Assembly: GCA_900128395.1 (NCBI GenBank)
Contig: LT649277.1
Span: 1 to 46,827, forward strand
Length of the DNA stretch: 46,827 bases
From: Stramenopiles sp. TOSAG23-2
Taxonomy: Eukaryota
Direction of reading: 5' to 3'
Shown: piece after piece, positions 4,546-33,900 of the stretch
How positions within the stretch are numbered: position 1 is the first letter of the stretch
How the letters are laid out: every line of letters begins with the position of its first letter
The notes under the pieces: generated by a model
What the model saw: the letters and a program-made list of their open reading frames with translations, nothing else
What the model was told of the DNA's origin: nothing
Database searches by the model: none
Position numbers and translations under genes: made by a program

Positions 4546-4623
4546 TTTGAAATGGTGGGGGGACGGGGGATTATATAGGGATATATTGTAGTTGGTAGTA
4601 TATAAATATATATATATTAATTA

Positions 4624-30990: not shown

Positions 30991-33900
30991 TTACCAGCAG
31001 TATATCTTCATCCCTTTCACTTGTTGATACCCGTTTGATCCATCTTCTTTATATTGTTCTATAGCATTTAATTGTGATATCATATTATCACTAAGTTGAT
31101 TATTAGATAGCCACAATCTATTTAATGTATTGTTTGTTTTTAATACATCAATAATACTTTGTATTCCACTATCATCAGTAATATTATTACCAGCTAGCCA
31201 CAATACCTCTAATGTATTGTTTGTTTTTAATCCGTCACCAATACTTTGTACATCAGTAATATTATTATCATCTAGGCGCAAGTACTTTAATGTATTGTTT
31301 GTTTTTAATACATCAATAATACTTTGTATTCCACTATCATCAGTAATATTATTACCAGCTAGCCACAATACCTCTAATGTATTGTTTGTTTTTAATCCGT
31401 CACCAATACTTTGTACATCAGTAATATTATTATCATTTAGCTCCAATGTCGTTAATGTATTGTTTGATATTAATCCTTCACCAATACTTTGTACATTAGT
31501 AATATTATTATTCTTTAGGTCCAATACCTGTAATGTATTGTTTGTTTTTAATCCTTCACCAATACTTTGTACATCAGTAATATTATTATCAATTAGGTAC
31601 AAGTACTCTAATGTCTTGTTTGTTTTTAACAATTCACCAAGAAGAAGATGCCGAAGAAGAAGCACGAGGAAAATGAGGGGCGTGAACTTGTTGTGCCAAT
31701 AACGGATGGTAATGATTACAAAAGGCCGGAAGATAGTGGCAAAAGGATGATGATGCCTGTATCGTTTGTTTTTAATCCTTCACCAATACTTTGTACATCA
31801 ATAATATTATTATCAATTAGGTACAAGTACTCTAATGTCTTGTTTGTTTTTAACAATTCACCAATAGCTAATGCATCCTCATCCGTAAGATTCTTTCCAT
31901 CCAAATCCACTTTCGTCTTCCCATCAAATTCTTTTTCCCATTTAATATACAAAGGTGTTTTTTGCACAGCTATTGATAGAGGTGGTGGTCCAGGTAGAGG
32001 CAGCGGCGGCGGCGGTCGCCCCACTCCAGGTGGAGGCGGTGGGGCATACAAAGTTGTTTTTTCCACTTTTCGCTTTGCTGCTTCAGCATTCATTTGTCTC
32101 CTCCTGTCTTCGTTAGGATCAATACCTTTACTATTTTTTTTTCGTCTTGGAGGCGGTGGGGCATACAAAGTTGTTTTTTCCACTTTTCGCTTTGCTGCTT
32201 CAGCATTCATTTGTCTCCTCCTGTCTTCGTTAGGATCAATACCTTTACTATTTTTTTTTCGTCTTGCAACAAGTCTTTTCAACTTTTGTAACCTCTCTTG
32301 TTCTTGCTTGCTTTTTTGCCGCTCTGCAAATTCATTTTCTTGCTTTTCAATATAACCTGCACTATGATGTTGATCCGTTGTATATCCATGCTTCTTTAAA
32401 ATTGGCAAATGTTTAGGATGAACCCAATGGATGCTACCTGTTTTCACATTGAATACTTTTGCAATTTCCCCTGCATTGACTAACGCTTTCCAATTCCCGT
32501 TAGTATGATTTTCTAAAAGTTCTTTCAGTGCACCATATGTATGTTCAAGCAACGTTTTGCTTTCATTTTCTAATTTGTTTTTATATATTTTGCCATCTTC
32601 AATATTTTTATGCATATTATTAACCATCTTCTCTACGTCTTTTGCTTTGCTAGATAAGGTTACTATTTTCGTATAAAACGTATTGGCATTTTTTGATCCA
32701 TCGTGTAAACTTGATGGAATTGGTAATTATTAACCATCTTCTCTACGTCTTTTGCTTTGCTAGATAAGGTTACTATTTTCGTATAAAACGTATTGGCATT
32801 TTTTGATCCATCGTGTAAACTTGATGGAATTGGTATACCACTAATAGCACCGCCTATTAATATTAATTTTGAAATAACAAACAACAAAGGAGCTAAACGC
32901 TCTAACAATGGCCCTGGAACTTCCACCTCAAATCCATCATGCAATGGTTTATCATCTACTTGGATTAAATCTGGTAAAAGTGTTGGAGCTTCATCGCATA
33001 TAAATAGTTGAAAAAATTGTTTCCATTTCGTCTTTTCCTCGGCCCATTTTTTAATTTTTGACAATTTAAACATTTGATTATCCCACCATTTTTGTGCTTT
33101 ATGTCTTGTATCTGCACCAGGGCCGGAGGAAAATGTCTTTCGAAAACCGCCCATTTTTTAATTTTTGACAATTTAAACATTTGATTATCCCACCATTTTT
33201 GTGCTTTATGTCTTGTATCTGCACCAGGGCCGGAGGAAAATGTCTTTCGAAAACCAGGTTTAACAACTATAATTCGTGGTACATCGGAACGATCAATATT
33301 TACAATTAAAGAAAATGTTGCATCCATTTTACTAATCAATGTATTAAATCCATCTTCCAACGAATCTAAGATTGTCATTTGTTTCTGTTCGATGGCAGAT
33401 AATTGTAATTTCATAGCGTGTTGATTTTCGATCATTTCTAACTGGTTATTTTGCATTTTTTTTTGGTTATTATATATTGCTGTTGCACGAATGGTTTGTT
33501 GACCTCTAAACAAATTTTTTTCTAATAGAGTTGTACAACTTTTTCTTTTTTTTGGGTCAATTTGAAGCATATCTTCTAGTAATTTTTGAAATGGGCGATC
33601 TGAAATTTGTTGTATTTCATTACTCGGATTAAAATCAGGGTCTATTAAACGGTTTGGAATATTTGGATGTTGGCCATTTTCAATTTCATCCTTCGAGAAA
33701 AAATCTTTACCAGTAAACAATTTATATAAAACTAACCCAAGTGGGAAAATATCTTGACTGATACTTGCTTGTATGCTTTTATTGTTGTTTTCATCAATAA
33801 TAGCTTTTGCTACTTCTGGTGAAATATACCCAGGTGTCATACTAATCCCGTTATATTTCGATGTTGGTACCTCGGGTTTCTCCCACGTAGTTTCACCGGT

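Follow-up and report, generated by a model that had tools for sequence, protein, structure and literature searches.

A leucine-rich repeat cassette shared by genes with unrelated N-terminal domains in a marine stramenopile: a candidate sensor-effector family of immune type

Three copies of one cassette of about 1 kb were identified in contig LT649277.1 of the assembly GCA_900128395.1 from Stramenopiles sp. TOSAG23-2, which was analysed over its full length of 46,827 nucleotides (hereafter, the window). The window is AT-rich (G+C 26-37%), gene-dense and composed largely of long open frames. The cassette consists of an N-terminal cap (N-cap), leucine-rich repeats (LRRs) of the ribonuclease inhibitor (RI) type with 26 or 29 residues, a C-terminal cap (C-cap), a stop codon and about 50 nt of 3' untranslated region (3'UTR). 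Two copies, at 4572-5598 and 30943-31949 on the reverse strand, end two genes whose N-terminal parts are unrelated, a stonustoxin-type MACPF protein (gene 1) and a kinase containing a WW domain (gene 2), and a third copy, at 8320-8790 on the forward strand, is broken. The window is interpreted here, with a probability of about 0.6, as containing two genes and a dead remnant that belong to a large and fast-evolving sensor-effector family, of presumed immune-type function, in an uncultured marine protist.

The copies were recovered by a repeat search and by BLASTN at the places given in a sequence-only reading of this DNA. The repeat search returned two pairs of inverted arms (4571-4892 with 8467-8788, 322 nt, 89%; 8467-8726 with 31003-31262, 260 nt, 90%) and two direct families (5407-5598 with 31758-31949 at 88%; 4615-4914 with 30985-31284 at 86%), and in BLASTN the two gene ends were 86% identical to each other over 711 nt. 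Alignment of the two junctions gave the abrupt onset of homology that had been described, at TATATTAAATGGGAAAAAGAATTTGATGG (encoding YIKWEKEFDG), with near-identity running from TATATTAAATGGGAAAAAG (encoding YIKWEKEF) and upstream DNA that could not be aligned. At the other end, identity among the three copies runs through the C-cap, the stop codon and about 50 nt of 3'UTR to CCCTATATA and is followed by divergence, again as had been proposed. Copy 1 begins with the N-cap YIKWEKEFDGKT and contains the C-cap QYKRDGSNGYQQVEGM. The repeat lengths of 26 and 29 residues given there correspond to units of 78 and 87 nt: of the 100 units with a successor starting at one of these two distances downstream, 74 have the shorter length and 26 the longer. 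Neither window gene has an intron within the array, and the cassette gives Pfam matches to LRR_6, in keeping with a C-terminal LRR array of the RI/NLRC3 type. The third copy, already described as broken, retains about 2.5 LRRs, the C-cap, the stop codon and the 3'UTR element; stops and deletions interrupt its frame, and it lies head-to-head with gene 1 at a distance of about 1.1 kb.

Gene 1 (4624-7209, reverse strand) is a single open frame of 861 amino acids that encodes a stonustoxin-type MACPF region, a helical region, a linker and the LRR cassette. Its N-terminal effector part comprises residues 1-536 (5602-7209, reverse strand), of which residues ~15-370 correspond to the MACPF/CDC and helical domains of the stonustoxin (SNTX) type. 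An exhaustive protein search with the first 545 residues returned 256 homologues at E<=1e-3, most of which carry the match at the N-terminus of multidomain proteins. In an alignment of 41 sequences (the query and 40 of the best homologues), Pfam recognized Stonustoxin_helical in 41, MACPF_SNTX in 38 and the SNTX thioredoxin-like domain in 31, and the C-terminal partners varied, including fn3, AIG1, PRY/SPRY (2/41), galectin and LRR_6. The profile of this alignment matched stonustoxin beta in the PDB (4wvm_B) at 6e-185, and gene 1 alone (phmmer) matched 4wvm_B over residues 23-363 at E 1.6e-10 and 4wvm_A at 4.3e-08. An AlphaFold 2 (AF2) model of the N-terminus had a mean predicted local distance difference test (pLDDT) score of 70.6, and Foldseek with this model ranked 4wvm_B first (E 4e-14, query-normalized TM-score 0.55, 493 columns), followed by TgPLP1, MPEG-1, perforin and pneumolysin. 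The model and its matches place the N-terminus of gene 1 in the MACPF/CDC fold.

Gene 1 itself misses the curated Pfam cut-off for Stonustoxin_helical (PF21109; 19.6-20.1 bits against 27), MACPF_SNTX (PF24674) is not among its own Pfam matches, and it is therefore regarded as a divergent member of the SNTX type. The MACPF signature is (Y/W)-G-(T/S)-H-(F/Y)-x6-G-G; the KGTHVITAVKYGT of gene 1 agrees with G-T-H-x7-G but not with the final G-G, and its residues T152, H153, Y160 and G161 are invariant across the 41 sequences. The stonustoxin-like N-terminus noticed in the sequence-only reading is upheld, and gene 1 is a predicted stonustoxin-type pore-former. Stonustoxin (PDB 4wvm), to whose MACPF/CDC and helical domains residues ~23-363 are homologous, has a PRYSPRY domain at its C-terminus, whereas gene 1 ends with the LRR cassette in that place. 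A whole-protein search of gene 1, with words drawn only from the N-terminus, returned one unrelated kinase-LRR protein. The SNTX module occurs together with RI-type LRRs in other proteins, both with a NACHT domain (P0122, SNTX-thioredoxin-NACHT-LRR) and without one (P0014 and P0085).

Upstream of its cassette, gene 2 (31950-35107, reverse strand) encodes a SAM-like domain, a kinase with a WW domain in the activation segment, an orphan region of about 300 amino acids and a polyproline linker. Pkinase matched both halves of the kinase (2.6e-4 and 4.9e-12, Pfam), in which the catalytic motifs VAK, HGDVKPGN and DFD were recognized by eye, and the WW domain (4.2e-10, Pfam) lies between DFD and SPE at ~33800-34000 on the reverse strand. 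A putative intron of 132 nt (34231-34362, reverse strand), with GT..AG splice sites placed by eye without RNA support, would connect HGDVK to PGNFV and give back the HxDxKPxN motif of kinases. The polyproline stretch PPPPLPLPGPPP (31950-32030, reverse strand) immediately precedes the N-cap. Gene 2 had been described as SAM-kinase-WW-COR-C-like; the kinase and WW parts hold, and the SAM part is a weak, SAM-like assignment (SAM_TNK, 0.0021, 18.5 bits, under the Pfam cut-off of 25). The COR-C-like assignment has no support, and the family is not of the ROCO kind: Pfam found no Roc or COR domain, the region of about 300 residues gave neither a Pfam match (two pieces, E<=0.01) nor a homologue at E<=0.01, and its single-sequence fold was uninformative (pLDDT 43). 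A weak Atlas lead to AAA_30 for this region stayed under recognition level.

In the assembly, gene 2 appears as five pieces. Its interruptions, which the sequence-only reading does not mention, are four exact tandem duplications and an insert of 123 nt. Contigs from two probable source runs, together with those of an independent seawater metagenome and of a metatranscriptome, were aligned on 30500-35500. The second copies of the duplications occupy 32031-32147 (117 nt; skipped by an X2 contig), 32616-32725 (110 nt) and 33042-33148 (107 nt; both frameshifting and skipped by X1, X2 and X3 contigs), and 34021-34126 (106 nt; frameshifting and skipped by X1 and X2 contigs). Their omission from independent contigs marks all four as artefacts of the assembly. 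With the duplicate copies omitted, gene 2 reads as one frame save the short interval taken as the intron, and since contigs from the two probable source runs and the independent seawater metagenome skip the frame-breaking duplications and restore this frame, the gene is considered real. Three further tandem duplications in the window, at 12215-12466, 19669-19848 and 23781-23924 (126, 97 and 72 nt, exact or 99%), are probably artefacts of the same kind.

One contig of 12.7 kb runs from 35500 down to 31920 and so holds the unique N-terminal DNA and 30 nt of the N-cap, and another of 7 kb covers the downstream gene and flank up to 30972, within the 3'UTR motif. These contigs show that the cassette is connected to unique DNA at either end, and the two contig ends would be the expected limits where contigs built from short words (apparently about 31 bases) meet a repeat. 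The summed contig depth on the N-cap and 3'UTR bins was ~14-30 times that of the unique parts (X1 and X2), which hints at many copies, with no copy number readable from it. The insert (about 123 nt, 31641-31763) interrupts cassette copy 2 in the assembly and is flanked by a duplication of about 101 nt of the first LRR with 2 mismatches. It is inverted and 83-89% identical to the pre-cassette linker of three loci that encode TIR, helicase and LRR regions (L007, L001 and L022), and is probably a chimeric join; because of this match, the organism probably has a TIR-helicase-LRR paralogue elsewhere.

The faults at gene 2, both the exact duplications and the inverted paralogue fragment, are what would be expected if the effector-LRR junctions were themselves artefacts, either amplification chimeras or assembly joins across a repeat, and the short-word contigs do break within the cassette without any listed contig spanning it. 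A mis-join across a repeat, however, cannot generate a boundary between unique and shared DNA, and both N-terminal parts run unbroken into the N-cap. The continuity from the N-terminus of gene 2 to its N-cap is also present in contigs from two runs, and 14 loci of other assemblies have uninterrupted frames over the same junction. An artefactual origin of the junctions is accordingly held to be extremely improbable.

A scan of metagenome contigs identified 47 further loci that carry the cassette, of which 23 have one common accession prefix. In 14 of the 47 the N-cap lies inside a long open frame, and in each of these frames the shared sequence starts no more than a few codons from Y[IM]KWEKEF, a motif that KKSAA often precedes. 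The number of repeats differs between members. A Pfam scan covered 20 family frames (L014, L015, L021 and L023 were left out) and found a recognizable non-LRR partner in 10, namely TIR_2 (4), helicase-type P-loop (4), kinase (2) and Peptidase_C14, SidE_PDE, ankyrin and XK-related (1 each). Combination of the module with unrelated partners, which the sequence-only reading had expected from two genes, is thus found in related contigs, and further copies exist. The claim of effectors with no recognizable NTPase fails for part of the family, as 4 of the 20 scanned relatives contain a P-loop of the helicase type (ResIII, DEAD or SLFN-g3), placed between TIR and the LRRs where TIR is present; STAND-like domains (NPHP3_N and AAA_16) were seen only under cut-offs.

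In Pfam, L001 encodes TIR_2 with a P-loop of the ResIII/DEAD type, and L007 (4029-8408) and L022 (3882-8414) encode Peptidase_S74, TIR_2 and ResIII followed by LRRs. Peptidase_S74 is an intramolecular chaperone or self-cleaving domain. L026 encodes ResIII with an SLFN-g3 helicase, L016 Peptidase_C14 (5e-20), L028 a kinase with TIR_2, L029 a kinase, L002 ankyrin, and L012 (3623-5326) an XK-related, scramblase-family domain (1.4e-10, over cut-off). L019 (3-2258) encodes SidE_PDE (6e-21), which matches Legionella lpg1496 at 6.5e-10. In this locus a SidE-type phosphodiesterase is fused to the cassette on a eukaryote-like contig, a finding of possible relevance to how the Legionella SidE family arose; an R-S-E ADP-ribosyltransferase suspected there by eye was not confirmed, as the phosphodiesterase part alone was matched. 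Similarly, a guess by eye that the N-terminus of L029 is MLKL-like was dropped for want of PDB support. A tblastn search with four valid query pieces found no relative of either window N-terminus, that of gene 1 or that of gene 2, encoded in the 47 loci.

Several loci depart from the common arrangement. In L020 (1-1773) the cassette is not terminal, and the frame continues past the usual stop into a C-terminal domain of about 220 residues without known kind. In L009 (3698-5563) two cassettes stand in tandem in one frame, the first C-cap leading directly into the second N-cap. L030 (2633-3049) is a cassette-only gene with a leader of about 24 residues before the N-cap, possibly a stand-alone form or a donor. 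A MASL start was seen in 8 of 26 family N-termini (the window start at 7209 and the loci) irrespective of the effector, with no common upstream DNA seen.

The N-cap DNA (the first 150 nt of the cassette) has nearest neighbours that are 87-93% identical and mostly belong to another partner class. Cassette similarity therefore does not track the effector. From this level of identity and the common 3'UTR motif, the 47 loci appear to represent one lineage. Outside the family, the nearest LRRs in a large protein collection are those of NACHT proteins: 88 proteins match the cassette at E<=1e-20, of which 32 have NACHT and several are named NLRC3 in their source. No description of the cassette family was found in the literature, paper supplements being outside the search.

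The conserved 3'UTR element contains a 20-mer, TATACTACCAACTACAATAT, at 4583-4602 (reverse strand) in copy 1, 8757-8776 (forward strand) in the relic and 30954-30973 (reverse strand) in copy 2. Its three occurrences in the window compare with 0.01 expected from 100 shuffles. The 20-mer is found with <=3 mismatches, 13-39 nt past the stop codon, in 21 of 31 distinct cassette ends that bear a C-cap, and it is exact in 9 of the 47 loci. It is also retained in L009 and L012, whose cassette protein is about 50% identical to that of gene 1. The element of the three copies folds no better than shuffled sequences (z 0.89, -1.73 and 1.31), and the 20-mer would be a linear cis-element, such as a 3'-end signal or a shared regulatory site.

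A sharp and constant 3' boundary with a conserved terminal motif, a dead truncated copy in an intergenic region and an inverted paralogue fragment within copy 2 would also suit a cassette that is the 3' portion or passenger of a mobile element and has spread by transposition or transduction and not by receptor selection. Against such an origin, which is considered very unlikely, the 5' boundary invariably keeps the reading frame and falls on the same codons of the N-cap, and inspection by eye of the three aligned 3' ends in the window showed neither a poly(A) tail nor a target-site duplication nor a terminal inverted repeat. No transposase or reverse transcriptase adjoins the three window copies, whose neighbouring frames are housekeeping genes, and no relative of the cassette was found in viral contigs. 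The neighbours include a DHDPS-family enzyme, an aquaporin, an ATG22-like transporter, an acyltransferase, a cathepsin and an RBBP6-like protein; the frame at 17058-19244 was recognized as DNA topoisomerase I by eye only. The cassette had been described as recently mobile, which is not distinguishable from ongoing homogenization.

The distribution of variation within the repeats was described from 157 units, including 19 from the window. The x positions of TLxxLxLxxN, which are positions 8, 9, 11 and 13 of the unit, have amino-acid entropies of 2.5-3.75 bits, compared with <=1.2 bits at scaffold positions 2, 3, 5, 18 and 19, which the search pattern left free, and an intermediate 1.54 bits at position 14, which is also free. 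In LRR proteins generally, from which the structure of the cassette is taken, these x positions lie on the concave face. Over all unit pairs, the four variable codons have proportions of nonsynonymous (pN) and synonymous (pS) differences of 0.586 and 0.264, and the scaffold codons of 0.086 and 0.096. These values are descriptive and do not amount to a formal selection test, because the units are paralogous and non-independent and some positions are fixed by the search pattern. Among the 171 pairs of window units, the scaffold codons show 0 synonymous and 555 nonsynonymous differences, and the four variable codons have a pN of 0.616 and a pS of 0.128. The four scaffold leucines are encoded by TTA, TTA, TTG and CTA in 143-156 of the 157 units, and the asparagine pair by AAC and then AAT. 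Per-base entropy is 1.1-2.0 bits in the first two bases of the variable codons and mostly low in third positions. The LRR scaffold is thus frozen at the nucleotide level, and variation is focused on four codons per repeat.

This pattern bears on whether the cassette is a set of non-self sensors or a general regulatory or adaptor module for localization, binding of a common partner or recruitment of substrates. RI-type LRRs are present in many non-immune proteins, and several cassette matches are named RanGAP-like or F-box in their source. The partners also include ankyrin, plain kinases and domains without known kind, the window genes stand among housekeeping genes, and the extreme conservation of N-cap, C-cap and scaffold is what one common partner would predict. 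Such a partner does not account for four hypervariable concave-face codons per repeat beside other codons frozen even synonymously, nor for a repeat number that varies among members, and the partner set is rich in death and immune domains (MACPF, TIR, caspase and SidE_PDE). An adaptor module is on balance regarded as a rather unlikely explanation.

The same pattern admits the more far-reaching proposal that the cassette is the substrate of directed diversification in a unicellular eukaryote, and hence an anticipatory receptor system outside animals, plants and fungi. The frozen scaffold would then supply homology for templated exchange, with cassette and relic copies as donors (compare the assembly of lamprey variable lymphocyte receptors and antigenic variation), or the first two bases of four codons per repeat would be the target of mutation. 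The resulting sensors would be plugged onto more than 10 kinds of death or signalling effectors under one common 3'UTR control element. This proposal is put forward as a long shot.

Animals, plants, fungi and bacteria have receptors in which a repeat sensor is paired with an effector for death or signalling, and the candidate family would be a variant of these. It resembles the animal NOD-like receptors (NLRs) of the NLRC3 type in having the same RI-type LRRs and an N-terminal effector followed by a C-terminal LRR array, and NLRs in general in the variable N-terminal effector domains. The SNTX-NACHT-LRR protein P0122 has a stonustoxin-type N-terminus, as does gene 1. Unlike NLRs, both window genes are without a NACHT or NB-ARC NTPase of the STAND class (signal transduction ATPases with numerous domains) in Pfam, so that the family is not NLR in the strict sense; where relatives have an NTPase, it belongs to the helicase type. 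A further difference from animal NLRs is the near-identity of the cassette and its 3'UTR among family members. Toll-like receptors and plant LRR receptor kinases likewise have LRRs fused directly to TIR or kinase without an NTPase. Those receptors span the membrane and carry LRRs of another class in an N-terminal, extracellular position, whereas the LRRs of the family are C-terminal and no signal peptide was seen by eye in the window genes. The NB-ARC-TPR proteins of brown algae are reportedly candidate receptors as well.

In fungal NLRs, effector and repeat domains are assorted combinatorially, and the repeats are highly conserved, length-polymorphic and under positive selection in a pattern that suggests concerted evolution, according to the available part of the account by Dyrka et al. 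(2014; PMC4986451). The cassette units show the frozen-scaffold and variable-codon pattern reported there for fungal repeats. The fungal repeats, however, are WD, ANK or TPR and, in that part of the account, include no LRRs and always accompany a nucleotide-binding and oligomerization domain (NOD), whereas LRRs are used here and most members have no NOD. The LRR-ROCO proteins of Ectocarpus belong to a lineage of protist grade and, as far as the available part of Zambounis et al. (2012; PMC3341825) describes them, have fast-evolving LRR arrays in which the LRRs are under diversifying selection and the repeat units are shuffled, a variation pattern like that of the cassette repeats. In Ectocarpus one repeat is one exon, exons are shuffled and the partner is Roc-COR (same part of PMC3341825). 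In the window, by contrast, the arrays are intron-free, Pfam found no Roc or COR, and the whole cassette is exchanged.

In the favoured reading, that of a sensor-effector family of immune type, each member would be a cytosolic one-chain protein with a variable N-terminal executioner or signalling part and a standard C-terminal module. The latter consists of RI/NLRC3-type LRRs, variable in number, between an N-cap and a C-cap that are both fixed, followed by a 3'UTR element of about 50 nt that is likewise fixed. The N-terminal part is a predicted pore-former of the stonustoxin-type MACPF kind or a kinase in the window, and in the relatives TIR (alone or with a helicase-type P-loop), caspase, SidE-type phosphodiesterase, XK-related or ankyrin. 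The concave LRR face may bind diverse non-self or danger ligands, and binding would free the N-terminal domain from autoinhibition. The freed effector would then act by pore formation, NAD+ cleavage, proteolysis or phosphorylation, and the cell would die or enter a defence state. An in-cis lock may be formed in gene 2 by the WW domain of the activation segment and the polyproline linker beside the N-cap. Diversification would proceed by unequal crossing-over and gene conversion among near-identical repeats, together with re-assortment of the whole cassette, and the common unstructured 3'UTR motif would give the family a single handle for post-transcriptional control or 3'-end processing.

The domain architecture, the sharp common boundaries, the diversity of partners and the frozen scaffold with its four variable codons per repeat are direct observations, and a role of the family in immunity or non-self recognition is suggested by the domain content and the hypervariable surface. 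Several points weigh against this reading. An inverted insert lies within the cassette of gene 2, no contig listed covers 31641-31763, and none spans either window cassette. The contigs from the RNA library that align on the first exon of gene 2 carry 6-14 differences, and the others align only on paralogue-like parts of the cassette. The pN and pS values are descriptive, as stated above. Both window genes sit among housekeeping genes and in no defence cluster, and PADLOC gave nothing specific, with just generic kinase and caspase matches. Ten of the 20 scanned frames have LRRs alone or no known domain, and ankyrin, the partner in one locus, is no death domain.

To our knowledge, free-living unicellular eukaryotes are almost unexplored for receptors of this kind. 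If the reading is correct, a marine protist would make such receptors mostly without a STAND NTPase and from one standard LRR module, on which MACPF, TIR and caspase domains, all classical in immunity and cell death, together with the SidE-type phosphodiesterase, XK-related domain and helicases, which are less usual in receptors, would be interchangeable heads. The sensor would evolve with frozen synonymous sites and hypervariable contact codons. The family would then provide candidate antiviral or antibacterial defence genes in ocean predators and a natural experiment on the re-assortment of sensor and effector modules.

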